Below are positions 8,928 to 62,646 of a stretch of 64,000 bases of DNA, piece after piece. The DNA comes from Escherichia coli (lineage in GTDB: Bacteria > Pseudomonadota > Gammaproteobacteria > Enterobacterales > Enterobacteriaceae): NCBI RefSeq assembly GCF_022846255.1, contig NZ_AP025682.1. One strand, given 5' to 3'. Numbering within the stretch: position 1 is the first letter of the stretch; the number at the start of each line of letters is the position of its first letter. The position numbers and the translations under genes are program-made. The notes below the pieces were generated by a model. It did not search any database, was not told the DNA's origin, and saw only the letters and a list, made by a program, of their open reading frames with translations.

Positions 8928-9138
8928 ACTTTCTCTTTTGTTGCTGCATAAATAGACAAATTTTGTGACCGCCTTCATATCTGGCCGATTTCGTTTTTTC
9001 TGATCGATTTACATTACGTTAAACATGCTTATTATGAACATGTGTTTAAATCTGAACACGTGCTCTAATAGTCTTATTGACTGTAATGACTATTTTACCC
9101 AATTTCTTCGTTGGCAATTTATTGCCAGGGGGCGTGCT

Positions 9139-10080
9139 ATGCGCGAAAAGGACTACATAGTAATTATTGGCTCGGCGAATATTGATGTGGCTGGGTATTC
9201 ACATCATCCATTGAATTATGCGGATTCGAATCCCGGAAAAATTAAATTTACCCCAGGTGGCGTGGGAAGGAATATCGCTCATAATCTGGCGTTACTGGGG
9301 AAAAATGCCTGGCTTTTAAGTGCAGTAGGTGGTGATTTTTATGGGCAATCATTACTGGCGCAAACTAATCAATCCGGTGTTTATGTCGATAAATGCTTAA
9401 TTGTTCCGGGTGAGAATACATCCAGCTATTTATCACTGCTCGATAATACAGGAGAAATGCTTGTCGCGATAAATGATATGAGTATTAGTGACTGTATTTC
9501 TGCAGAATTTCTTGCCCAGCATCAGGAGTTTATTCGCGGTGCAAAGGTTATTGTCGCGGATTGCAACCTTAGTGAAGAGGCGCTGGTCTGGGTTCTGGAA
9601 AATAGCGGGGAAACGCCTGTATTTATTGATCCGGTATCGGCATGGAAATGCGTCAAAATCCGCGATCATCTGAGCAAAATCCATACGTTAAAACCTAACC
9701 GTCTTGAAGCCGAAACGTTGAGCGGAATTGCACTTTCCGGACGTGAAGATGTCGCAAAGGTCGCCGCCTGGTTTCATCAACACGGCCTGAACCGCCTGGT
9801 GCTGAGCATGGGAGGGGATGGCGTTTACTACAGTGATATCAACGGTGAAAGTGGGTGGTCGGCCCCTATTAAAACGAATGTCATCAATGTTACTGGGGCA
9901 GGCGACGCCATGATGGCGGGGCTGGCCTCCTGTTGGGTAGACGGTATGCCGTTTATCGATTCTGTTCGATTTGCGCAGGGATGTTCGTCAATGGCACTTG
10001 CCTGTGAATATACCAACAACCCTGAATTATCAATTGCCAATGTTACATCGTTAGTGGAGAACACAGAATGTCTGAATTAA
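9139..10080 (+). CDS. psuK: Pseudouridine kinase (PfkB family)
   Basis: Track ORF 9025..10080 trimmed to ATG 9139 (MREKDYIVIIGSANIDV..., 313 aa); ribokinase-like GGVGRNIAHNLALLG and C-terminal GAGDAMMAG motifs. Confidence 0.88.
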   Translation: MREKDYIVIIGSANIDVAGYSHHPLNYADSNPGKIKFTPGGVGRNIAHNLALLGKNAWLLSAVGGDFYGQSLLAQTNQSGVYVDKCLIVPGENTSSYLSLLDNTGEMLVAINDMSISDCISAEFLAQHQEFIRGAKVIVADCNLSEEALVWVLENSGETPVFIDPVSAWKCVKIRDHLSKIHTLKPNRLEAETLSGIALSGREDVAKVAAWFHQHGLNRLVLSMGGDGVYYSDINGESGWSAPIKTNVINVTGAGDAMMAGLASCWVDGMPFIDSVRFAQGCSSMALACEYTNNPELSIANVTSLVENTECLN

Positions 10081-11006
10081 CTCTGTCCCCTGAATTATTA
10101 CAAATATCCGCTGAAGTACAGGATGCTTTAAAAAATAAAAAACCGGTTATTGCGCTGGAATCGACCATAATTTCTCACGGAATGCCATTCCCACAAAATG
10201 CCCAAACCGCAATTGAAGTAGAAGAAACAATTCGTAAACAGGGCGCAGTACCAGCCACTATCGCCATTATTGGCGGCGTGATGAAAGTGGGCTTAAGTAA
10301 AGAAGAAATTGAATTGCTGGGCCGTGAAGGACATAACGTGACGAAAGTTAGTCGTCGTGATTTACCTTTTGTCGTTGCAGCAGGGAAAAATGGCGCAACC
10401 ACCGTTGCATCAACCATGATTATTGCAGCACTGGCTGGGATTAAAGTTTTTGCAACCGGAGGTATTGGTGGTGTGCATCGCGGAGCGGAACATACCTTCG
10501 ATATTTCTGCCGATTTACAGGAACTGGCAAATACCAATGTCACTGTTGTTTGTGCGGGGGCAAAATCTATTCTCGATTTAGGATTAACAACAGAATATTT
10601 AGAAACCTTCGGTGTACCGTTAATTGGTTATCAGACAAAAGCGCTGCCTGCGTTTTTCTGCCGAACCAGCCCATTTGAAGTCAGCATTCGTCTTGACAGT
10701 GCCCGCGAAATTGCTCGCGCGATGGCAGTGAAGTGGCAAACCGGTTTGAACGGCGGCCTGGTGGTAGCGAACCCGATCCCGGAACAGTTTGCGATGCCAG
10801 AAGAAACCATCAATGCAGCAATTGATCAAGCCGTTGCTGAAGCCGAAGAACAGGGTGTTATTGGGAAAGAGAGTACACCGTTCCTGCTGGCGCGTGTTGC
10901 GGAGCTAACCGGCGGTGATAGCCTGAAATCCAATATTCAACTGGTCTTTAATAACGCCATTCTGGCGAGTGAAATAGCCAAAGAATACCAGCGTCTCGCG
11001 GGTTAA
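10068..11006 (+). CDS. psuG: Pseudouridine-5'-phosphate glycosidase
   Basis: 312-aa ORF overlapping the psuK 3' end by 13 nt; recognised sequence. Confidence 0.9.
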   Translation: MSELTLSPELLQISAEVQDALKNKKPVIALESTIISHGMPFPQNAQTAIEVEETIRKQGAVPATIAIIGGVMKVGLSKEEIELLGREGHNVTKVSRRDLPFVVAAGKNGATTVASTMIIAALAGIKVFATGGIGGVHRGAEHTFDISADLQELANTNVTVVCAGAKSILDLGLTTEYLETFGVPLIGYQTKALPAFFCRTSPFEVSIRLDSAREIARAMAVKWQTGLNGGLVVANPIPEQFAMPEETINAAIDQAVAEAEEQGVIGKESTPFLLARVAELTGGDSLKSNIQLVFNNAILASEIAKEYQRLAG

Positions 11007-11099
11007 TTTCTGACGGGCAGAAAGCCGTCGCCCGTACTCATCAAGCATACCAAAACCTGGCGCTGACGCCGGGTTTACTGGCATGAAGGGAAAATCATT

Positions 11100-12350
11100 A
11101 TGGATATAATGAGAAGTGTTGTGGGGATGGTGGTGTTACTGGCAATAGCATTTCTGTTGTCAGTGAATAAAAAGAGCATCAGTTTGCGCACGGTTGGAGC
11201 CGCACTGCTGCTGCAAATCGCTATTGGTGGCATCATGCTCTACTTCCCACCGGGAAAATGGGCAGTAGAACAGGCGGCATTAGGCGTTCATAAAGTGATG
11301 TCTTACAGTGATGCCGGTAGCGCCTTCATTTTTGGTTCGCTGGTTGGGCCGAAAATGGATGTCCTGTTTGACGGTGCGGGTTTTATCTTCGCCTTTCGCG
11401 TACTTCCGGCGATTATTTTCGTTACTGCGCTCATCAGTCTGCTGTACTACATTGGCGTGATGGGGCTGCTGATTCGCATCCTTGGCAGCATTTTCCAGAA
11501 AGCCCTCAACATCAGCAAAATCGAATCTTTTGTTGCGGTTACCACTATTTTCCTCGGGCAAAATGAGATCCCGGCGATCGTTAAACCGTTTATCGATCGC
11601 ATGAATCGCAACGAGTTGTTTACCGCAATTTGTAGCGGGATGGCGTCCATTGCTGGTTCGATGATGATTGGTTATGCCGGAATGGGCGTACCAATTGATT
11701 ACCTGTTAGCGGCATCGCTAATGGCGATCCCTGGTGGTATTTTGTTTGCACGTATTCTTAGCCCAGCCACCGAGCCTTCGCAGGTGACATTTGAAAATCT
11801 GTCGTTCAGCGAAACGCCGCCAAAAAGCTTTATCGAAGCGGCGGCGAGCGGTGCGATGACCGGGCTCAAAATCGCCGCTGGTGTGGCGACGGTGGTAATG
11901 GCATTTGTGGCGATCATTGCGCTGATCAACGGCATTATTGGTGGAGTTGGCGGCTGGTTTGGTTTTGCCAATGTCTCTCTGGAAAGCATTTTCGGCTATG
12001 TGCTGGCCCCGTTGGCATGGATTATGGGGGTGGACTGGAGTGATGCAAATCTTGCCGGAAGTTTGATTGGGCAGAAACTGGCGATTAACGAATTTGTCGC
12101 TTACCTGAGTTTTTCGCCATATCTGCAAACGGGCGGCACGCTGGAAGTGAAAACCGTGGCGATCATCTCCTTTGCGCTGTGTGGTTTTGCTAACTTTGGT
12201 TCTATCGGTGTTGTCGTTGGAGCGTTTTCGGCTATTTCGCCAAAACGCGCACCGGAAATCGCCCAGCTTGGTTTACGGGCGCTGGCAGCAGCAACGCTTT
12301 CCAACCTGATGAGCGCGACCATTGCCGGGTTCTTTATTGGTTTAGCTTGA
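11100..12350 (+). CDS. psuT: NupC-family (CNT) nucleoside permease
   Basis: 416-aa polytopic membrane protein; near-identical paralog of the 14286..15536 ORF. Confidence 0.9.
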   Translation: MDIMRSVVGMVVLLAIAFLLSVNKKSISLRTVGAALLLQIAIGGIMLYFPPGKWAVEQAALGVHKVMSYSDAGSAFIFGSLVGPKMDVLFDGAGFIFAFRVLPAIIFVTALISLLYYIGVMGLLIRILGSIFQKALNISKIESFVAVTTIFLGQNEIPAIVKPFIDRMNRNELFTAICSGMASIAGSMMIGYAGMGVPIDYLLAASLMAIPGGILFARILSPATEPSQVTFENLSFSETPPKSFIEAAASGAMTGLKIAAGVATVVMAFVAIIALINGIIGGVGGWFGFANVSLESIFGYVLAPLAWIMGVDWSDANLAGSLIGQKLAINEFVAYLSFSPYLQTGGTLEVKTVAIISFALCGFANFGSIGVVVGAFSAISPKRAPEIAQLGLRALAAATLSNLMSATIAGFFIGLA

Positions 12351-12356
12351 GTTTCA

Positions 12357-12395
12357 TTGCCGGATGTACGCCTTATTAAGCGTTGCATCCGGCAA
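12357..12395. repeat. REP-like palindromic unit between convergent psuT and yeiL
   Basis: TTGCCGGATGTACGCCTTATTAAGCGTTGCATCCGGCAA. Confidence 0.7.
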
Positions 12396-12416
12396 TCGCA
12401 CTATTGCCAATAATTT

Positions 12417-13076
12417 TTACTGCATCATCCCGGAGAATTTATTCTCCGGGTCCATCTCCAGCGCCAGTCCTGACAACTGCTTTCTGTTTTTAATGAGATA
12501 CCCTTTCTTGCTTTTAATTAATAAACCGTCATTAATGAATTGCGCAAGAACATATAAAAGATGTCGATAAGAAACGCCTAAATACTCTGCCGCTTGCGTA
12601 TGCTTTTCGTGATAAAGATCACCTTCCTGCGAGAGTAATATAAAAGCTGCCAGGCGATTCACTAACGGAAATGATTGATTCTGAGTTAAAGAAACAATAT
12701 TACGATAATTTTTATGACTTAAGGTGACGCAGAGTTTTCGTAAAAATAGCGTGTCGTTTAATAACAACGGGCGGTAATGCTTCATAGGGAGCGCAAGACA
12801 CCAACACTCTTCAATAGCCTGCACTGCACGCGGTTCATGGTCTTTGTCGATTAACTCAATCTCGCCAATAAAACAGGGCGCGGCAAAGAAATCGATCAGC
12901 GACACGCGACCATTAGCAAGCGTGACGTAAAGCCTGGCGCGGCCTCGCGTCAGGTAAAACAGCCAGGACGGCTGTTGCCCTTCCTGCACAATGTAGTCAC
13001 GCGCTAAAAAATGAAACAGCCGCGTATCGGCTGAAACATCCGTTGAAAAGCAATCCTTAAACGCAGATTCACTCAT
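12417..13076 (-). CDS. yeiL: Crp/Fnr-family transcriptional regulator
   Basis: Track ORF trimmed to [14 protein letters not shown]... (219 aa); cNMP-binding-like fold region and C-terminal HTH ([16 protein letters not shown]). Confidence 0.85.
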
Positions 13077-13244
13077 CAATTGCTGCTTAAGATCATTATT
13101 GTGGATTTCTTTCACGATGTTTATCCGCTATGAGATTTCTCATATTTAGCATACGTACGCTGTTGTTAAGATTCAATCATCGGCCAGGTCGAATTTTCTT
13201 TGCTGTAGAAACAATAACGCAACTGGAAACAGAGGAAATAAACA

Positions 13245-14186
13245 ATGGAAAAGAGAAAAATTATTCTGGATTGTGATCCGGGTCATGATGATGCTATTGC
13301 TATAATGATGGCGGCGAAACATCCGGCGATTGATTTATTAGGTATCACCATTGTAGCGGGTAATCAAACCCTCGATAAAACATTAATTAATGGCCTGAAT
13401 GTTTGCCAGAAACTGGAGATTAATGTTCCGGTTTATGCGGGGATGCCGCAGCCCATTATGCGTCAACAAATCGTTGCCGATAATATTCACGGTGAAACCG
13501 GACTGGATGGCCCGGTATTCGAGCCGCTGACCCGCCAGGCAGAAAGTACCCATGCGGTGAAATACATCATTGATACCCTGATGGCAAGCGATGGCGATAT
13601 CACTCTGGTGCCGGTTGGTCCACTTTCAAACATCGCGGTGGCAATGCGTATGCAACCCGCAATCCTGCCCAAAATCCGTGAAATTGTGCTAATGGGCGGC
13701 GCTTACGGTACAGGCAACTTCACGCCATCTGCCGAGTTCAACATCTTTGCCGACCCGGAAGCAGCCCACGTAGTGTTCACCTCTGGCGTTCCATTAGTGA
13801 TGATGGGCCTCGATCTCACCAACCAGACCGTTTGCACCCCGGACGTGATTGCCCGGATGGAAAGGGCAGGCGGCCCTGCCGGAGAGCTGTTCAGCGACAT
13901 CATGAACTTCACTCTCAAAACCCAGTTCGAAAACTACGGTCTGGCTGGCGGCCCGGTACATGACGCCACCTGTATCGGTTATCTGATTAACCCCGATGGC
14001 ATTAAAACCCAGGAGATGTACGTCGAAGTGGACGTCAACAGTGGCCCTTGTTACGGGCGTACCGTCTGCGACGAGCTGGGCGTTCTTGGCAAGCCCGCCA
14101 ATACAAAAGTCGGCATCACTATTGATACCGACTGGTTCTGGGGATTAGTCGAAGAGTGCGTGCGCGGCTACATCAAAACCCACTAA
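13245..14186 (+). CDS. rihB: Pyrimidine-specific ribonucleoside hydrolase
   Basis: 313-aa ORF with the N-terminal DCDPGHDDA nucleoside-hydrolase signature. Confidence 0.92.
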
Positions 14187-14198
14187 GTGGTGATATCA

Positions 14199-14232
14199 AG
14201 CCGGGTCTGTATCGCAAGATGCAGGCCCGGCT
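14199..14232 (+). terminator. Imperfect hairpin downstream of rihB (possible attenuator/terminator)
   Basis: AGCCGGGTCTG...CAGGCCCGGCT stem with one mismatch, followed by ATTTCT. Confidence 0.4.
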
Positions 14233-14285
14233 ATTTCTGATGGGCAGAAAGCCGTCGCCCAAAATGACATGAAGAGATAATAACT

Positions 14286-15536
14286 ATGGATGTCATGAGA
14301 AGTGTTCTGGGAATGGTGGTACTGCTGGCAATTGCGTTTTTGCTGTCAGTAAACAAGAAGAAGATCAGCCTGCGTACCGTTGGCGCGGCGTTAGTGTTAC
14401 AGGTCGTGATTGGCGGCATTATGCTTTGGTTACCGCCAGGGCGTTGGGTCGCAGAAAAAGTCGCTTTTGGCGTGCATAAAGTGATGGCGTACAGCGACGC
14501 GGGTAGCGCATTTATCTTTGGTTCTCTGGTCGGACCGAAAATGGACACCTTATTTGATGGCGCAGGATTTATCTTTGGTTTCAGGGTATTACCGGCAATT
14601 ATCTTCGTTACAGCACTGGTGAGTATTCTCTACTACATCGGTGTGATGGGGATCTTAATTCGCATTCTCGGCGGTATATTCCAGAAAGCATTGAATATCA
14701 GCAAGATTGAGTCATTCGTCGCGGTCACTACCATTTTCCTCGGGCAAAACGAAATTCCGGCAATCGTCAAACCCTTTATCAATCGTCTGAATCGCAATGA
14801 ATTATTTACAGCGATTTGTAGCGGGATGGCCTCGATTGCTGGTTCGACAATGATTGGTTACGCCGCACTGGGCGTGCCTGTGGAATATCTGCTGGCGGCA
14901 TCGTTAATGGCGATCCCCGGCGGGATCTTGTTTGCCCGCCTGTTAAGCCCGGCAACAGAATCTTCGCAGGTTTCCTTTAATAACCTCTCTTTCACCGAAA
15001 CACCGCCAAAAAGCATTATTGAAGCCGCTGCGACAGGGGCAATGACCGGGCTGAAAATCGCCGCAGGTGTGGCGACAGTAGTGATGGCATTTGTCGCCAT
15101 CATTGCGTTAATTAACGGTATTATCGGCGGCGTTGGCGGCTGGTTTGGCTTTGAACATGCCTCGCTGGAGTCCATTTTAGGTTACCTGCTGGCCCCACTG
15201 GCGTGGGTAATGGGTGTTGACTGGAGTGATGCGAATCTTGCCGGGAGTTTGATTGGACAGAAACTGGCAATAAATGAATTTGTCGCTTACCTCAATTTCT
15301 CACCTTATCTGCAAACAGCTGGCACTCTGGATGCTAAAACCGTGGCGATTATTTCCTTCGCGTTGTGCGGTTTCGCTAACTTTGGTTCTATCGGGGTGGT
15401 GGTGGGGGCGTTTTCTGCGGTTGCGCCACACCGTGCACCGGAAATCGCCCAGCTTGGTTTACGCGCGCTGGCGGCGGCGACACTTTCTAACCTGATGAGT
15501 GCAACCATTGCAGGATTCTTTATTGGCTTAGCGTAG
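14286..15536 (+). CDS. nupX: NupC-family (CNT) nucleoside permease, paralog of psuT
   Basis: 416-aa ORF, about 85-90% identical to the psuT product along the full length by eye (last ~40 residues identical). Confidence 0.9.
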   Translation: MDVMRSVLGMVVLLAIAFLLSVNKKKISLRTVGAALVLQVVIGGIMLWLPPGRWVAEKVAFGVHKVMAYSDAGSAFIFGSLVGPKMDTLFDGAGFIFGFRVLPAIIFVTALVSILYYIGVMGILIRILGGIFQKALNISKIESFVAVTTIFLGQNEIPAIVKPFINRLNRNELFTAICSGMASIAGSTMIGYAALGVPVEYLLAASLMAIPGGILFARLLSPATESSQVSFNNLSFTETPPKSIIEAAATGAMTGLKIAAGVATVVMAFVAIIALINGIIGGVGGWFGFEHASLESILGYLLAPLAWVMGVDWSDANLAGSLIGQKLAINEFVAYLNFSPYLQTAGTLDAKTVAIISFALCGFANFGSIGVVVGAFSAVAPHRAPEIAQLGLRALAAATLSNLMSATIAGFFIGLA

Positions 15537-15550
15537 TGCGCGAGTTATGA

Positions 15551-37994: not shown

Positions 37995-38945
37995 ATGCGT
38001 GTGTTACTGGCTCCGATGGAGGGTGTACTTGACTCTCTGGTGCGGGAATTACTGACCGAAGTTAACGACTACGATCTGTGCATCACCGAGTTTGTCCGCG
38101 TGGTGGATCAACTGCTGCCAGTAAAAGTCTTTCATCGCATTTGCCCTGAGCTACAAAATGCCAGCCGGACACCATCCGGTACGCTGGTGCGCGTGCAGTT
38201 GTTAGGGCAGTTCCCACAGTGGCTGGCAGAGAATGCCGCCCGTGCGGTGGAGTTAGGTTCCTGGGGCGTGGATCTTAACTGCGGCTGCCCGTCGAAAACG
38301 GTTAACGGTAGCGGTGGTGGGGCAACGTTACTGAAAGATCCTGAACTCATCTACCAGGGTGCAAAAGCGATGCGCGAAGCTGTACCGGCGCATTTGCCTG
38401 TCAGCGTAAAAGTGCGTCTGGGCTGGGACAGCGGTGAGAAGAAATTTGAAATCGCCGATGCGGTGAAACAGGCTGGCGCTACGGAGCTGGTAGTACATGG
38501 GCGGACAAAAGAGCAGGGTTACCGCGCGGAACATATTGACTGGCAGGCGATTGGCGAGATTCGCCAGCGGCTTAATATTCCGGTGATTGCCAACGGTGAA
38601 ATCTGGGACAGGCAGAGTGCGCAACAATGCATGGCGATCAGCGGCTGCGACGCAGTGATGATTGGTCGCGGGGCGCTCAATATTCCCAACCTGAGCCGGG
38701 TAGTAAAATATAACGAACCGCGAATGCCGTGGCCGGAGGTGGTTGCTTTGCTGCAAAAATATACCCGTCTGGAAAAGCAGGGCGATACCGGGTTATATCA
38801 CGTTGCGCGGATTAAACAGTGGTTGAGTTATTTGCGTAAAGAATACGATGAAGCAACGGAATTATTTCAGCATGTTCGGGTGTTGAATAATTCCCCTGAT
38901 ATTGCAAGGGCTATTCAGGCAATTGATATCGATAAGCTGCGATAA
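37995..38945 (+). CDS. dusC: tRNA-dihydrouridine synthase C
   Basis: Track ORF 37929..38945 trimmed to [13 protein letters not shown]...; Dus TIM-barrel with catalytic Cys region (LNCGCP). Confidence 0.88.
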
Positions 38946-39002
38946 TAGTGGAATCGCAGTTTATCAGAGACAATGAATCGCTTATTCAGCTTCATCATCT
39001 TG

Positions 39003-39240
39003 TTGCGCTCCTTTCATGAGCTAAGCCACATATTGCCACTGGCGCAAGGAGCGCGCAGGGGGAGGACAATCGCCTCCTCCCCCTGCACCCCCGGGCTCTG
39101 GCGAACAAAATCGCCGCTGCGCGGTACCTTCAGCTTATCCCCTTCGTCTACCGGGTCGGGCGCGAGGTAACGTCCTTGTAAGACGCGCCCTCAGCCCACA
39201 TCCATGTGGGCTGCCCCGGCCTTCGGGGAACGCTTCAGCG
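39003..39240. other. GC-rich intergenic element with four successive hairpins (unclassified repeat or structured RNA)
   Basis: GCGCTCCTT…AAGGAGCGC; GGGGGAGGacaatcgcCTCCTCCCC; GCCCACATccATGTGGGC; CCCCGgccttCGGGG. No convincing ORF. Confidence 0.4.
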
Positions 39241-39332
39241 ATTTTGACGCCACCAACACCGGAGCTGTTTGCAAATCAAGTACACAAAATATCTAGTTCC
39301 TGACCTGACAACTTATATGCCATATCTGATTT

Positions 39333-39416
39333 TTAAAATATCATCTTAAATACGCCAGTCACCACCAGTAGCCCAATCAGGAAAATAATCAATACAGCCC
39401 AGAGTATAATTTTCAT
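39333..39416 (-). CDS. yohP: 27-aa single-TM small membrane protein
   Basis: ATG…TAA ORF translating to MKIILWAVLIIFLIGLLVVTGVFKMIF; below the ORF-track size cutoff. Confidence 0.7.
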   Translation of the reverse strand: MKIILWAVLIIFLIGLLVVTGVFKMIF

Positions 39417-39639
39417 TGGCGTTCCTTTATTTGTGAGTGCTGAATAAGTATAGGAAAAAACGAAGCCCTTTGCCGTTATCCATAAACGATTAAGATAAAT
39501 CGGAAGATATCATTCACTTAGTGTATATTTTTCTGGATATGTCGTTTTATTGCTACTGATGTATTGCCACGCGAAACTAAAAAATATATCGCAACACACG
39601 GTAATCTCCGCGCACCTTTTCTTACCTGATTATTCCCCC

Positions 39640-41076
39640 ATGAATCGTGATTCCTTTTATCCCGCCATCGCCTGTTTTCCGCTGTTACTGATGCTGGCCG
39701 GGTGTGCGCCTATGCATGAAACCCGCCAGGCGTTAAGCCAGCAAACGCCCGCTGCACAAGTTGACACCGCATTACCCACGGCGCTGAAAAATGGTTGGCC
39801 AGACAGCCAATGGTGGCTGGAGTATCACGATAATCAACTCACTTCCTTAATTAACAATGCACTACAGAACGCACCGGATATGCAGGTGGCTGAACAGCGC
39901 ATTCAGCTAGCTGAAGCCCAGGCGAAGGCAATTGCTACTCAGGATGGTCCGCAGATCGACTTTTCTGCGGATATGGAGCGGCAAAAAATGTCGGCAGAAG
40001 GCTTAATGGGGCCGTTTGCTCTGAACGATCCGGCCGCAGGTACGACCGGTCCGTGGTACACCAACGGAACTTTTGGCTTAACGGCGGGCTGGCATCTCGA
40101 TATCTGGGGAAAGAATCGGGCGGAGGTTACTGCCCGCCTGGGTACGGTTAAAGCACGGGCGGCGGAACGCGAGCAAACCCGCCAATTGCTGGCTGGCAGC
40201 GTAGCCCGCCTGTACTGGGAGTGGCAAACCCAGGCGGCGTTAAACACGGTCTTGCAGCAAATAGAAAAAGAGCAGAACACCATTATCGCGACCGATCGCC
40301 AGCTATATCAGAACGGGATTACTTCTTCAGTTGAAGGTGTGGAAACCGATATTAATGCCAGCAAAACCCGGCAGCAGCTCAACGATGTCGCGGGGAAAAT
40401 GAAAATTATTGAGGCACGGTTAAGCGCACTTACAAATAACCAGACAAAGTCATTGAAGCTTAAACCGGTCGCGTTGCCGAAAGTGGCAAGCCAGCTTCCT
40501 GATGAACTGGGGTACTCCTTACTGGCCCGGCGGGCAGATTTGCAGGCGGCGCACTGGTACGTTGAGTCATCGCTAAGCACCATTGATGCGGCAAAAGCGG
40601 CATTTTATCCTGACATCAACCTGATGGCCTTCCTGCAACAGGATGCGTTGCACTTAAGCGATCTGTTCCGTCATTCCGCGCAGCAAATGGGCGTTACGGC
40701 AGGCCTGACGCTACCCATTTTCGATAGTGGTCGTCTTAACGCCAATCTCGATATCGCAAAAGCCGAAAGCAACTTGTCTATCGCCAGCTACAACAAAGCG
40801 GTGGTTGAAGCGGTGAATGACGTGGCGCGGGCAGCCAGTCAGGTTCAGACACTTGCGGAGAAAAACCAGCATCAGGCGCAAATTGAGCGCGATGCCTTGC
40901 GTGTGGTAGGTCTTGCGCAGGCGCGCTTTAACGCGGGCATCATTGCTGGTTCCCGCGTCAGCGAAGCCAGAATCCCGGCGCTGCGTGAGCGGGCCAATGG
41001 CCTGTTATTGCAAGGGCAGTGGCTGGATGCTTCCATTCAACTCACTGGTGCGTTGGGCGGGGGTTACAAACGCTGA
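39640..41076 (+). CDS. mdtQ: Outer-membrane efflux lipoprotein (OMF/TolC-like, NodT family); appears intact here
   Basis: 478 aa from ATG 39640; lipobox LLMLAGC; no internal stop or frameshift in this sequence. Confidence 0.8.
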   Translation: MNRDSFYPAIACFPLLLMLAGCAPMHETRQALSQQTPAAQVDTALPTALKNGWPDSQWWLEYHDNQLTSLINNALQNAPDMQVAEQRIQLAEAQAKAIATQDGPQIDFSADMERQKMSAEGLMGPFALNDPAAGTTGPWYTNGTFGLTAGWHLDIWGKNRAEVTARLGTVKARAAEREQTRQLLAGSVARLYWEWQTQAALNTVLQQIEKEQNTIIATDRQLYQNGITSSVEGVETDINASKTRQQLNDVAGKMKIIEARLSALTNNQTKSLKLKPVALPKVASQLPDELGYSLLARRADLQAAHWYVESSLSTIDAAKAAFYPDINLMAFLQQDALHLSDLFRHSAQQMGVTAGLTLPIFDSGRLNANLDIAKAESNLSIASYNKAVVEAVNDVARAASQVQTLAEKNQHQAQIERDALRVVGLAQARFNAGIIAGSRVSEARIPALRERANGLLLQGQWLDASIQLTGALGGGYKR

Positions 41077-41128
41077 TGATATGCGCCTTCTATACTTAAC
41101 GTTTATTCAGCGTTAAGTGGAGAACTCG

Positions 41129-41890
41129 ATGGCACAGGTTGCGATTATTACCGCCTCCGATTCGGGGATCGGCAAAGAGTGCGCGTTATTACTGGCGCAG
41201 CAGGGGTTTGATATTGGCATTACCTGGCACTCAGATGAAGAAGGGGCAAAAGATACCGCGCGTGAGGTAGTTAGCCACGGCGTACGTGCGGAGATCGTGC
41301 AGCTGGATCTCGGTAAACTGCCAGAAGGTGCGCAGGCGCTGGAGAAACTCATTCAACGGCTGGGGCGTATTGATGTGCTGGTGAATAATGCGGGCGCAAT
41401 GACCAAAGCGCCGTTTCTTGATATGGCTTTCGATGAGTGGCGCAAGATTTTTACCGTTGATGTCGATGGTGCATTTTTATGCTCACAAATTGCGGCCCGC
41501 CAGATGGTGAAACAAGGGCAGGGCGGTCGCATCATCAACATTACGTCGGTACATGAACATACGCCGCTGCCGGATGCCAGCGCTTACACAGCCGCTAAAC
41601 ATGCGCTCGGCGGGTTAACCAAAACGATGGCGCTGGAGCTGGTCAGGCATAAGATTTTGGTGAACGCAGTCGCGCCTGGGGCGATCGCCACGCCAATGAA
41701 TGGCATGGATGACAGCGACGTGAAGCCCGACGCGGAGCCTTCGATTCCTCTGCGGCGTTTTGGCGCAACGCATGAGATTGCCAGCCTGGTAGCGTGGCTG
41801 TGCTCAGAGGGCGCAAATTACACCACCGGGCAGTCGTTGATAGTGGATGGCGGCTTTATGTTGGCGAATCCGCAGTTCAACCCAGAATAG
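41129..41890 (+). CDS. yohF: Short-chain dehydrogenase/reductase
   Basis: 253 aa, MAQVAIITASDSGIGKE…; SDR cofactor motif and YxxxK. Confidence 0.9.
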   Translation: MAQVAIITASDSGIGKECALLLAQQGFDIGITWHSDEEGAKDTAREVVSHGVRAEIVQLDLGKLPEGAQALEKLIQRLGRIDVLVNNAGAMTKAPFLDMAFDEWRKIFTVDVDGAFLCSQIAARQMVKQGQGGRIINITSVHEHTPLPDASAYTAAKHALGGLTKTMALELVRHKILVNAVAPGAIATPMNGMDDSDVKPDAEPSIPLRRFGATHEIASLVAWLCSEGANYTTGQSLIVDGGFMLANPQFNPE

Positions 41891-57238: not shown

Positions 57239-59242
57239 TCATCCTTGTTGCTGAAGCATGGGGAATAATTGTTCGCAAAGCAAAACACCGTTATTCATTG
57301 CTTCTACCCGTGCCTCGCTTTCTGTATTACGAAATTGTCCCAACACATGTGCCAGCCGATAAAAACCCACCGCGGTGAGGTCATTCGCCAGCAACTCTGC
57401 CTGACCAATAGCACTCTGTTCCTGATAGCGCCAGCCGTTATGGAGCAGTTGAATAAGTAACGCCTGGCAGCGCATCAGCAACTGATGAGCGGTAGACGGC
57501 ACAGGCAGAACGCTGGCAGAAGGTAGCGGTGCCACAGGCGCAGTTTCTGCGTCCAGCGCCCAGGCGCGGGTTTTTGTCATCATCACCCGTGGTTCCAGTG
57601 TTAATTGCCCCTCTACAAAACTGACAAAGCCAGAAACCAGGCTCACGGGGTCGTCTGTTTGTTGCAAAAGCGCCGCCATGCGTTCAACGGCAAAAGGAGA
57701 ACAGGCAGATGCCGGAAGGGATAACGTCAGCACATTATCTTCCCCTTCGCCGCTGATTACCTGCGCATCCAGTGTCTGGCGGCTGCTATCCCAACCGAGC
57801 GAAATACACTCCGCTACCGGCAGAATAAATAAGTTATCGACCTGGTTGAGTGGTCGTATGCAGGCGGGGGGACGCTGGCGTAAATATTCCCGCAAAGCCA
57901 CAATGCCCGGCTGGCGCAACGGCGCGCTCAACATTAGCCAGGCGTCTGGCGACAGTGGAACAACGCCACTCAAGCGGTTACGGGTCGCGAACAGCAGCTC
58001 GCAATCGGCACTGCGTTTTGCAGCTTGTGAAACAATTTGCCCACCTGCCAGTGCGCCAGCCTGAAAACTAAACAGCCGACGCGTCGCTGCCGGTGAGTTT
58101 TCCTGTTCGCTTCTCTGCCAACTACGCGAAAGATGCAAAATACTTCCTGTGTCGGGATCGGTAAACCAGATGCGTAAACCATACTGCTCAATATCCTGCC
58201 AGCAACGCATACCTAAAGACACCAGCCGCAGATGATCAAGTTTTGCTTCTCCGGCAATACCAGCGCCAACGACCGTGCGCCACGGCATGGGAGGAACTTC
58301 ACCGATACTGTCGCGTCGCGCCATCTCTTGTACGCAATTTAATCGACTGTTTAATGCCGCAAGCTGACGTAAGCATTCTCCGGCATGGTAGTGGCTGGCA
58401 CGGGCGTGGAAGGCATCAACACTGGCGCGCAATTGCCGTAGCGATTCACTCACCCATCGCCAGTTGCAGCGTTCCGCCGCTTGCTGCGCGCGACTGAAAG
58501 CGGCCTCGTAATGGATTGGCGGTTGACTTATCCCGCCCAGCCATAATGCCTGGCTTAATTGCTGAACATATTGACGACACGTTTTGCCTTCTTCGCTGGC
58601 AAACGGATCATCAGATGATGTGGCGTGTTCACTGCGCATCTGCCAGATTAAATGAGTAAATTCCGCTTGCTGAGTTTTGGCCTCGACGAAGGCCTGCACA
58701 GCCAGTACGACATGTTCGCAAAGTGTGCCTTCAATGCAATCACAGCGTGCGAAGCGAATGCTGCTGCGGGAATAAAAACGCACATCGCTCATCGGTAATC
58801 GGGCAGAGGGAATTTCGCCAGGCGCACAGAACAACTCAATGGTGATGCCTTTAGCGACCAGCGCCTGCGCGCGTTTGCGGGTGGCATCGGGCAAGGTAGC
58901 CAGTTCTTTCAGCCAGATTGCCGGATCCCACTCTTCTTCTTTTTTTTCCGTAGGCTGGGCGGTGGCACAAAGTCGTTGATAACTTAACACCAGCATCACG
59001 CGATGACGGCACATGCCGCTGGCCCCGCAGGTGCACTGAGCCTCTTTCAGTGCCTGACTGTTCGCCAGCTGTGTACGGACACCGTCACTGAAAGTGGCGA
59101 TTAAAGCGCCGTTCTCATGGCTGATCTCCGGGACGTTGCCATTTTCCAGTTCCTTAAGGCTGCGCTTAACAAAACCGGCATTGCTTAACGCCGTCAGTGC
59201 CTGTGGTGTCAGTTCTAATAATTCCGGACGTAGTGAATTCAT
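57239..59242 (-). CDS. yehQ: SWIM zinc-finger-containing protein (last gene of the yehL cassette)
   Basis: Two CxC…CxH SWIM-like motifs (CTCGASGMCRH, CDCIEGTLCEH); chosen ATG overlaps the yehP stop as ATGA; exact start uncertain (track ORF extends to 59266). Confidence 0.8.
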   Translation of the reverse strand: MNSLRPELLELTPQALTALSNAGFVKRSLKELENGNVPEISHENGALIATFSDGVRTQLANSQALKEAQCTCGASGMCRHRVMLVLSYQRLCATAQPTEKKEEEWDPAIWLKELATLPDATRKRAQALVAKGITIELFCAPGEIPSARLPMSDVRFYSRSSIRFARCDCIEGTLCEHVVLAVQAFVEAKTQQAEFTHLIWQMRSEHATSSDDPFASEEGKTCRQYVQQLSQALWLGGISQPPIHYEAAFSRAQQAAERCNWRWVSESLRQLRASVDAFHARASHYHAGECLRQLAALNSRLNCVQEMARRDSIGEVPPMPWRTVVGAGIAGEAKLDHLRLVSLGMRCWQDIEQYGLRIWFTDPDTGSILHLSRSWQRSEQENSPAATRRLFSFQAGALAGGQIVSQAAKRSADCELLFATRNRLSGVVPLSPDAWLMLSAPLRQPGIVALREYLRQRPPACIRPLNQVDNLFILPVAECISLGWDSSRQTLDAQVISGEGEDNVLTLSLPASACSPFAVERMAALLQQTDDPVSLVSGFVSFVEGQLTLEPRVMMTKTRAWALDAETAPVAPLPSASVLPVPSTAHQLLMRCQALLIQLLHNGWRYQEQSAIGQAELLANDLTAVGFYRLAHVLGQFRNTESEARVEAMNNGVLLCEQLFPMLQQQG

Positions 59243-60375
59243 GACTGAAGATTCTCCGCAAGCCATGATGCCAGCTCGCCCGGTGTCATGGCGGCTATTT
59301 GTGCGCCGACATTTACCAGCGCCTGGGCCGTATCGTGGTCATAGCAAGGTGTTGCGCTGCTATCGAGCGCCGCCAGTCCCAGCACTTTGATGCCGCTCTG
59401 GACACACTTTTTCACCTGATGCGTCAGCAATGATGATGACCCACCTTCATAAAAATCGCTCACGAGAATAATGACACTTTTTGCAGGTTGTTCAATAAGT
59501 TGCCGACCATACTCCACGGCACTGGCGATATTGGTCCCGCCGCCCAGTTGTACTTTCATTAATAACTCTACCGGATCGGCAACGTCTGCCGTGAGATCAA
59601 CCACGCTGGTGTCAAAAGCGACCAGATGGGTACGAATGCCGGGTAACTGCCATAAACAGGCCGCCATCACTGCGGAGTGGATCACCGAATCAACCATCGA
59701 TCCGCTTTGATCAACCAGTAGGACCAGTTGCCATTGTTCGCTATGGCGTTTAATGCGGCTGTTAAAGCGGGGGGATTCGATATACAACTTGCCGTGTTGC
59801 GGGTGCCAGTGTTGCAGGTTGGCGCGCAGAGTACTTTTGAAATCAAAGTTTCGCGCCAGTGAAATAAATGAGCGGCGACGGCGATCGCGTACTCCAGAAA
59901 AAGCCTGACGAACTTCCTTTGCCAGTCGCGCCATAATCTCTTCAACAACCTGGTGCACTATCCGGCGGGCGGCAGCCAGTACTTCGGGATTCATCAGATG
60001 TTTGGCGTGCAAAACGGCGCGTAGCAGGCTTTCAGAAGGCTGCATACGTTCCAGCACGTCGAGATTCGTCACCACATCTTCAATGCCGTAGCGCAGCACG
60101 GCATCGCTTTCCAGCCGCTCGATCACCCGTTGCGGAAACAGCGTGTGAATGCTGTTGATCCACTCAGGGGTGGTGAGATTTGAACGACCTAATCCACCGT
60201 AACGTTCACCACGCTGGAGCCGTTCAGGATCGCGCCCATACAGCCACTCCAGCGCGTGGTCTATCTGCCGGGCGTTGTCATCCAGCCCACAAAGCGTCGT
60301 TTCTGCCGCTTCGCCAAGAATTAATCGCCAGCGTTGTAGCTCACGGGTGGTCAGAAGATCGTTCAGTTCAGACAT
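59239..60375 (-). CDS. yehP: von Willebrand factor A (VWA) domain protein
   Basis: 378 aa from MSELNDLLTTREL…; MIDAS motif DQSGSM; start overlaps the yehM stop by 8 nt. Confidence 0.88.
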   Translation of the reverse strand: MSELNDLLTTRELQRWRLILGEAAETTLCGLDDNARQIDHALEWLYGRDPERLQRGERYGGLGRSNLTTPEWINSIHTLFPQRVIERLESDAVLRYGIEDVVTNLDVLERMQPSESLLRAVLHAKHLMNPEVLAAARRIVHQVVEEIMARLAKEVRQAFSGVRDRRRRSFISLARNFDFKSTLRANLQHWHPQHGKLYIESPRFNSRIKRHSEQWQLVLLVDQSGSMVDSVIHSAVMAACLWQLPGIRTHLVAFDTSVVDLTADVADPVELLMKVQLGGGTNIASAVEYGRQLIEQPAKSVIILVSDFYEGGSSSLLTHQVKKCVQSGIKVLGLAALDSSATPCYDHDTAQALVNVGAQIAAMTPGELASWLAENLQS

Positions 60376-62646
60376 GGAAAACTCCCCAGTGTTGCAGCGA
60401 TGCCAGTGCCTGCTGTTCGAGTTGTTGATGATGTGCAATGTCTTGTGGTGGACAATGCAACGGCATTTGCAGTGCCGAAACGGGAAGTTGCACCAGTTGA
60501 TAATGCTCAAGCACCTGATGTGCCAGCGTCCCGCGTTCTCGTGGTGGTAGCCAGGCCATCGCCGCGCGTAAATCGGGCAGGGCATTGATAAAATCGGCAT
60601 CACTCAGTTGATTTAAATGACTGCTGAAACCGGCGATAAATACCGGCTGACAGGCCAGTTGATGACGGGCTAATGCCAGCAAACCGTGCAGCGCCTCGCC
60701 GGATTGTGCCGGGGATAACTGCGCCAGCATCGTCAGCGCCGTTTCGGCACTGGCGTTGGGATGTTCCAGACGCATCAGTGCGCCAAGAGTCGCGCCGCGA
60801 TCCAGCGCCGGGGCATGAATCGCCTGACTGCGGCGCTCCAGTAAGGCTACTGCCGCAGAAAGCGAAACGCCGGGTAAATTAACGCCGCTATGTAGATCGC
60901 GCAGGATATGGCAAAGCGCCTGCCAGCTATGCAGGTGAGTGTGAAACTCCTTTTCATCCGGTCTGCCGTTGGATTCACATAGCCAGAGTGTGCGATCGAT
61001 AGCCGCGCATAACGTCGTCTGTAATATCTGCGCGCCTTGCATACCGCTAATTTCATCCAGCCGCCATAAGGCATATAGCACTTCCAGCGCCTGGCCCATT
61101 TCGGCGAATTGATTTTCCTGGGCGATTAATAATGTGAGTTGCTCCAGTAATTGTTGACTGAAGGACGCCAGACCCGCTAACGCCGCCTGGCTAAGACATG
61201 TGGTGATACTGCCGATTCCACCCGCGTCCAGCATATCGGCTTCTAATTTATTGCGTGCGGCTTCCTGGAGTGTGGCACCAAAGCAGGCGGCCTCAATTAA
61301 TGCCGCATGTTGCTAAGCGGGCGGGTTAATTTCCAGCGTTCTTCACCGTTGCCTGCAAGTGTCAGTGTGCTTCCCTGCTGGCGTACAATCCCTGGGATCT
61401 CCAGTATTGCCAGCCGATGTAACACCTGACTTTGCGCTAGTCCATTGGGGGTAAAGCGATTTAAGGTAAGCTCCGCCGGAAGAGAGATTGCGGTACGTTC
61501 CAGTTCGCAGGTGACATCTTTTGGCAGAGGCGGTTGTGGCGTAGAAGGGGCAAGTTTACCGAATCCGTCACCCGCTAATGTGTCTATCAACGTTAGCAGA
61601 ATCGGATCGGTATCGGGATGAATAACGCCGCGATAGCTCCACGGCAACGGCGCATTCAGGGCTTCTTTAATCAGCGATCCTGCTATGGCATCCAGCCAGT
61701 CAGTGCGTAACGGTAGTGTATGACCGCGCAACTGTGCCAGTGCCATCGCATGCAGATGAGCGGCAGCCATATCCGCGGTCGAAGCAGGCAACTTGTGCTG
61801 GCGCAAACGGGTGAGAACCGTTTTTAGCAATTGTTCTCCCGTCTGCTGTAAGCCCCACTGCCAGCACCAGTTTTGCCAGACCGGGGCAGGCATTCCTGAA
61901 AGGTATCCTGCCAGCACATCAAGGCGCTTTTCACTGTAGGGGGTGAGATAACAACCTGTAACGGCATCTGCCAGCGACGGCAATTCTGGCGTGTTAATTA
62001 CCTGCGGACATTCGCGCCACATTTTTGCCAGTGCCGGAGCGTGCCAGCCACCGCAGACAACTAACACGTCGCCATTATTTTGCTGCATCGCCCATGTAAT
62101 CCAGCGGGCCATAAAGGCTTCGCGCTGACGATTGAGAGCATCTCCGGGGGAGTCGCCCCGCAGTTGGGCAAAATAGTGCGCCAGTGCAGAGGGTAATGCA
62201 GTTTGCTGGCTTTCATCTTCGAACAAGTGATCCCACAGGGTGTCGCTGTTATCCATGCGGGTGGCACGCAGCAGCAAGGTCTGGCTTTCCTCTTGCGTAT
62301 CAGGCGAATCGTCCTCTTCTTCACTCTGCGCCCAGCAAGGCAAATCGATGAAGTAAGTTTGTGCCTGAATACGACGAGCGGCTTGTAGCGCCTGCCACTC
62401 CGGCGAAAATTCAGCATATGGCGTCCAGGCACCACGCCCGGGGGCTGCACCGTCCTGATACTGGCAATAACTGTAAATAGCTACCGGAAGCTGGTGGGCT
62501 AAAAACAGTTCGTCTACCCGGTCATTAAAATCAGCCGGGCCTTCAATCAACACGTATCGTGGCCGCTGGCTTTCGATTAACGATTTCACCAGCCGGGCGC
62601 AGGCCGGACTATGATGCCGGATGCCGACAATTAACGGCTCGCTCAT
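60368..62646 (-). pseudogene. yehM: Large uncharacterized protein of the yehL cassette, interrupted by a frameshift in this sequence
   Basis: Two abutting minus-strand ORFs in different frames (61297..62814 and 60368..61234); the upstream frame stops at 61297-61299, the downstream frame is open only below 61313. Confidence 0.6.

Follow-up and report, generated by a model that had tools for sequence, protein, structure and literature searches.

The closest described relative of MdtQ in Escherichia coli is its paralog MdtP (YjcP), the outer-membrane factor (OMF) of the ytcA-mdtNOP system, which matches it with 35% identity over 464 amino acids (E 4e-88). Both proteins are NodT-type lipoproteins, but MdtP is encoded together with the adaptor MdtN and the FUSC-family transporter MdtO, whereas MdtQ is an orphan. 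Among proteins of solved structure, VceC of Vibrio cholerae (PDB 1yc9) is the closest homolog by sequence and one of the best by fold (TMt 0.87), although the two are only 25% identical; we take VceC to be the partner of the MFS pump VceAB, with which it is encoded. TolC of E. coli (PDB 1ek9) differs from MdtQ in that identity is ~13% and TolC is not a lipoprotein. MdtQ is one of four TolC-like outer-membrane factors of E. coli. In the K-12 reference genome MG1655 (NC_000913.3), its gene is annotated as a pseudogene of 1436 nt (b2139, 2227323-2228758, minus strand).

The window analysed here, the whole of a 64,000-nucleotide stretch of E. coli DNA, carries mdtQ on the plus strand as a single reading frame that begins with ATG at 39640 and ends with TGA at 41074-41076, a length of 1437 nt that comprises 478 codons and the stop. 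The chance of 478 sense codons remaining open is ~(61/64)^478, roughly 1e-10, so that the frame would lie well past chance. Two antisense ORFs of 114 and 91 aa within mdtQ were taken as chance ORFs. The features of the locus, with the basis of each assignment, are as follows.

39333-39416, minus strand: yohP, a small membrane protein gene and divergent upstream neighbour, 100% identical to MG1655 yohP and annotated in all sampled genomes
39417-39639, plus strand: yohP-mdtQ intergenic region, the 5' region of mdtQ (sequence)
39640-41076, plus strand: mdtQ (yohG) coding sequence, intact, 478 aa and TGA, for a NodT-type outer-membrane-factor lipoprotein (ORF, NF008524, TIGR01845, Pfam OEP)
39640-39705, plus strand: lipoprotein signal peptide, residues 1-21, up to the lipobox L19-A20-G21-C22 (direct sequence reading)
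39787-39791, plus strand: A5 run in codons K50-N51 (CTG AAA AAT), which is A4 in K-12 and the site of its lesion (MG1655 alignment)
39952-40710, plus strand: four predicted beta-barrel strands (residues 105-116, 139-153, 325-336, 348-357) and predicted helices 158-224 and 230-265 (AlphaFold2)
up to 41052, plus strand: the remaining predicted tunnel helices, residues 365-431 and 437-471 (AlphaFold2 model)
41129-41890, plus strand: yohF, an SDR-family oxidoreductase gene, 52 nt 3' of mdtQ (mapping to MG1655 yohF)

The product of this frame has the N-terminus MNRDSFYPAIACFPLLLMLAGCAP, in which the lipobox L19-A20-G21-C22 can be read directly. Cys22, encoded by TGT at 39703-39705, is predicted to be lipidated and to start mature MdtQ, and at least 90% of the 134 family members aligned share it, as expected from sequence for a NodT-type lipoprotein. 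The protein scored 1023.9 bits against the NCBIfam MdtQ equivalog NF008524 (cutoff 650), with residues 1-478 of 478 covered, and 273.8 bits against TIGR01845, the NodT-type OMF lipoproteins (cutoff 210.05), over residues 16-475. Pfam OEP (PF02321) matched two stretches at 106.1 bits, in keeping with the tandem repeat of the outer membrane factor family. Scores for neighbouring families fell short: 356.1 bits against 597 for MdtP (NF007390), which marks MdtQ as a paralog and not a member, 53.5 bits against 225.15 for TolC (TIGR01844), and values under the cutoffs of the CusC-type and AdeK models. The gene order dusC-yohP-mdtQ-yohF-yohD is that of MG1655 and of 11 sampled E. coli genomes, which puts the gene in the orthologous position. 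Thus the original prediction, of an uninterrupted 478-codon ORF at 39640-41076 that encodes a full-length, TolC/NodT-like MdtQ with a lipoprotein signal, was correct in coordinates, length and identity.

Global alignment of the window ORF with MG1655 mdtQ (99.2% nucleotide identity at the orthologous locus) gave 10 substitutions, of which one is non-synonymous (I98V), and located the K-12 lesion as one A deleted in 39787-39791. With one A fewer in the A5 run, the K-12 frame reaches a stop after 69 aa and the downstream remainder is open in another frame, so that the K-12 product is a 69-aa stub with a signal peptide but without the channel. The earlier statement that MG1655 mdtQ is a frameshifted pseudogene therefore agrees with both the NC_000913.3 annotation and the alignment: it is the K-12 allele that is broken, and the window does not have its disruption. 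Two ways of rescuing the K-12 allele were rejected on inspection. CTG AAA ATG is not a slippery heptamer, transcriptional slippage needs a longer run than A4 to be efficient, and reinitiation would yield a product without the signal peptide, which is encoded upstream of the lesion.

Because the lesion site is a homopolymer run, a typical spot for sequencing indels, the intact frame could be a reading or assembly error in a window that truly has the K-12-type disruption; the nature of the site was the only support found. Against this, A5 is present in all nine sampled non-K-12 genomes, a 70-mer spanning A5 occurs exactly in 4554 of 5426 complete E. coli genomes, and the window protein is identical, with 0 amino acid differences, to RefSeq WP_001078114.1 from strain 504838, whose mdtQ has a single synonymous nucleotide difference from the window allele. 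The MG1655 alignment, the 70-mer counts and the allele comparison together refute a K-12-type disruption in the window, and we regard an error as vanishingly improbable.

The frequency of intact alleles was estimated from diagnostic 69- and 70-mers and from 11 loci taken as a rank-spread sample. The mdtQ locus is found in 5423 of the 5426 complete genomes and is at least 80% covered in 5407. The K-12 A4 69-mer occurs exactly in 355, and among 60 of these matches listed all are laboratory K-12 derivatives (MG1655, C600, DH5alpha, J53, NCM3722 and others) or genomes of K-12/J53 size. Genomes outside the 4554 with the exact A5 70-mer differ from it through nearby SNPs, as in EC444. All nine sampled non-K-12 alleles (97.4-99.9% identity; BL21, O157:H7, APEC O2-211 and others) are annotated and translated as intact proteins of 478 aa; the other two sampled loci, JME67 and TP6-1, are frameshifted, with an A4 lesion identical to that of K-12. 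The O157:H7 protein, exemplified by UniProt Q8X659, has the same locus (yohP-mdtQ-yohF) and length, and its sampled allele differs by 4 amino acids. These results show that E. coli normally carries mdtQ intact and that the K-12 lesion is a peculiarity of a laboratory lineage. The original prediction had implied that an intact gene was rare, and here it did not hold: with 4554 A5 matches against 355 A4 matches among 5426 genomes, the intact gene is the rule.

The window strain, like ~93% or more of sequenced E. coli, has a normal mdtQ, and it is the K-12 reference that deviates. As a corollary, pseudogene labels from K-12 are not transferable to other strains, and the K-12-based view of TolC as the sole relevant exit duct came from a strain without one of the four E. 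coli OMFs. The finding of an intact mdtQ is real and was correctly interpreted, but it is already known, since RefSeq annotates intact MdtQ in thousands of genomes and a 2025 review treats mdtQ as conserved in the core genome despite its pseudogene label (PMC11762307).

Variation among intact alleles is of the coding type. Across ten of them, mean dS was 0.061 and mean dN 0.0052 (dN/dS 0.086), and codon positions 1, 2 and 3 held 15, 6 and 55 polymorphic sites, respectively. These values point clearly to strong purifying selection on mdtQ. Full-length orthologs are found in E. albertii (94%, 479 aa), Salmonella (~82%, 478 aa) and Citrobacter (~80%, 479 aa). Losses of the gene also occur. In strain MRE162 substr. 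NOR (NZ_CP119400.1, 1652921-1653618) an IS1B element lies between yohP and yohD, and mdtQ and yohF are both absent, so that the whole pair has been deleted, in nature or in the laboratory. Some isolates of Salmonella Typhi and Paratyphi A have independent mdtQ truncations (PMC9241588).

An AlphaFold2 monomer model of MdtQ built on 134 diverse relatives (pLDDT 89.9, pTM 0.86) has four beta-strands and four very long helices of 36-67 residues, the fold of an OMF protomer. In Foldseek comparisons the model matched CmeC, VceC, CusC, OprN, OprJ, SilC and OprM at E ~1e-22 and TM 0.74-0.89, with TolC more distant (E 3e-14, TM ~0.66). By sequence, VceC was the best match among solved structures (E 1e-39; 140 bits, compared with 87 for OprM). 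Under the +2 rule of Lol sorting, the alanine that follows Cys22 leads us to expect sorting to the outer membrane. From what is known of the OMF family, the signal peptide would be cut at Cys22, Cys22 would be lipidated and the protein would be sorted to the outer membrane in a Lol-dependent manner. Three protomers would then assemble into an outer-membrane barrel of 12 strands that continues into the periplasm as a long helical tunnel, and this tunnel would dock a periplasmic adaptor, itself bound to an inner-membrane transporter, to complete a continuous export duct. Amino acid polymorphism among E. coli alleles is concentrated at residues 262-275 (~40423-40464; S262I/N, N267H, S271A, K273T, K275N), a stretch that takes in the last residues of helix 230-265 and the first of the unstructured linker joining the two repeats (266-291 in the model).

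The neighbours of mdtQ (dusC, yohP, yohF, yohD, yohC and pbpG) are the same in every E. coli genome examined, and no adaptor or transporter gene lies within ~10 kb of it. MdtQ must consequently have a partner that is encoded elsewhere, and a review likewise calls it an orphan (PMC11762307). Given a dN/dS of ~0.09, a complete predicted fold and the lack of pump genes nearby, the earlier suggestion of a possibly functional orphan outer-membrane channel in this strain is reasonable. Taken together, we hold it very probable that 39640-41076 encodes wild-type, intact MdtQ (formerly YohG), an outer-membrane factor whose partner pump is encoded at another locus.

Candidate partners were narrowed by surveying the genes around the ten cluster representatives that are nearest to MdtQ without being orthologs; these are 33-42% identical and equally close to MdtP and MdtQ. 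Five of the ten are the terminal gene of an operon with a FUSC-family transporter; three of these five operons are complete and run YtcA, AaeA-like adaptor, FUSC transporter, OMF, with the OMF start overlapping the FUSC stop. The ytcA-mdtNOP operon of E. coli has this same layout. Three further relatives are coupled to MFS transporters: two adjoin genes for an MFS transporter and an EmrA/HlyD-like adaptor, and one lies beside an EmrA-like adaptor gene with the MFS gene two genes on. Contigs of the remaining two were too short to assign a pump class. An RND transporter adjoined none of the ten, eight of which had informative neighbourhoods. Since the nearest relatives sit in FUSC- or MFS/EmrA-like operons and never with RND genes, we hypothesise that the likeliest partners of MdtQ are non-RND pumps with HlyD/AaeA/EmrA-type adaptors. 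The candidate RND and MFS partners named in the original prediction can be revised accordingly: MFS pumps are backed by three of ten neighbourhoods, RND pumps by none, and FUSC pumps, with five of ten, should be added.

MdtQ could still act as a further exit duct, beside TolC, for RND pumps (AcrAB, AcrEF, MdtEF or others) and be able to replace TolC, because its predicted fold fits the RND-associated OMFs OprM, OprN, OprJ, CmeC and MtrE about as well as it fits VceC. This is hard to reconcile with eight informative neighbourhoods that hold five FUSC-type and three MFS-type transporters but no RND gene, with the margin by which VceC exceeds OprM as a sequence match, and with the place of the closest E. 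coli paralog, MdtP, in a FUSC-type operon. We therefore consider an RND role very unlikely, and FUSC- and MFS-type pumps stand as the candidates to which the neighbourhood analysis narrows the search.

MG1655 has two FUSC-type pumps with an adaptor but without an OMF gene, aaeXAB and ydhIJK, and a Chem Rev review gives the OMF of AaeAB, which is functional in E. coli, as unknown (PMC8277102). By analogy with the operons of its relatives, MdtQ might in wild E. coli be the outer-membrane partner of AaeXAB and/or YdhIJK, a tentative proposal that we ourselves think improbable. If it were true, the role could have been overlooked because efflux genetics has relied almost entirely on K-12, with its frameshifted mdtQ. 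AaeAB was presumably also characterised in K-12, where MdtQ is absent; if it works there, MdtQ is not strictly required for its function.

Both flanks of mdtQ bear on how the gene is used. On the 5' side, the last 20 nt ahead of the ATG contain no Shine-Dalgarno-like GGAG, and a promoter/terminator consensus scan of 38900-41200 found 2 sites where 2.4 were expected from shuffled sequence, so nothing over chance. The 240 bp upstream of the gene nevertheless has 0-1 mismatches to strains 504838, BL21 and O157:H7. On the 3' side, the consensus scan detected no terminator-like site between mdtQ and yohF (41077-41128), and mdtQ and yohF may be co-transcribed. A metagenomic MdtQ homolog of 60% identity has an SDR fragment directly 3' of it (gap 2032-2079 on its contig), and this arrangement hints that mdtQ-yohF may be a conserved two-gene unit.

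The lack of a ribosome-binding or promoter-like match raises the alternative that mdtQ is intact but cryptic, being scarcely or never expressed under ordinary circumstances and having no measurable role in efflux, with TolC serving all relevant pumps. A review states that the mdtQ promoter has not been experimentally confirmed and its function not elucidated (PMC11762307), published knockout effects are slight, and loss of the gene is tolerated in K-12, in MRE162 and in some Typhi and Paratyphi A isolates. For an unused gene, however, neither a dN/dS of this order nor retention of the full length across E. coli, Salmonella and Citrobacter would be expected; the upstream region is near-invariant in the strains checked; and the Klebsiella pneumoniae ortholog, YohG (479 aa), has been detected in the outer-membrane proteome (PMC4404324). 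A cryptic gene keeps some weight because of the missing Shine-Dalgarno and promoter matches and the tolerated losses, but it fits the selection signal poorly and we judge it unlikely, less so than the other alternatives raised here. We thus continue to prefer an intact outer-membrane factor that works with a pump encoded elsewhere, a reading that sits alongside the fact that mdtQ is dispensable in the laboratory.

The knockout data themselves are difficult to place. Sulavik et al. 2001 reportedly found that a yohG knockout slightly raised susceptibility to puromycin, acriflavine and TPA. The strains used are said to have been K-12, in which case the deleted gene was already a pseudogene of 69 aa. 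If the knockout was made in K-12, the phenotype might come from polarity on yohF or from noise in the MIC values.

Beyond mdtQ, the whole window (64,000 nt) is collinear with MG1655 2268402-2204341 (64,062 nt) in reverse orientation, and no IS insertions were seen in it on alignment to MG1655. This collinearity and freedom from IS elements make Shigella an unlikely source of the window. Blocks are mostly 96-98% identical, one region is 92% identical and identity per gene ranges from 88% to 100%, in agreement with the earlier view that the window is not from MG1655. The frameshift reported in yehM was also borne out: relative to MG1655 the gene has a one-base gap and an ORF of 449 aa in place of 759. 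In yehM (60368-62646, minus strand) the 449-aa ORF runs from the conserved start and is followed by a 288-aa ORF that covers the remainder of the protein in other assemblies. The truncated YehM has exact matches in a few assemblies, including DRR322657, DRR322658 and DRR102846, and its recurrence in several assemblies argues for a lineage trait and against a sequencing error.

Other differences from MG1655 are scattered along the window. The gap between dusC and yohP contains a stretch (38985-39261) that is 88% identical to MG1655 2229106-2229383 and inverted relative to its flanks. It corresponds to the repeat TRIP1c; published work locates this repeat 43 bp downstream of yohI (dusC), at a distance of 363 bp upstream from yohG, and reports it in both orientations (PMC10888264). 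The yehQ gene (57395-59242, minus strand) encodes 667 aa, compared with 614 aa annotated in MG1655, at 92.7% nucleotide identity with 9 gap columns; the differences in length and gaps probably reflect an altered C-terminus in one of the two alleles. The region that spans psuK-psuG-psuT-yeiL-rihB-nupX (9007-15538) is unusually divergent, at 92.4% identity to MG1655 and 30 gap columns; identity falls to 88.5% in psuG, and for psuK megablast returned no match to MG1655. This pattern suggests that the region may be a recombined or replaced allele block. Finally, mdtQ alone is 99.9% identical to its counterparts in strains 504838 and TW10828, and over the 24 kb from 28000 to 52000 the best match among the 5426 complete genomes reaches no more than 98.4% identity, suggesting that the window comes from a mosaic or poorly represented lineage.
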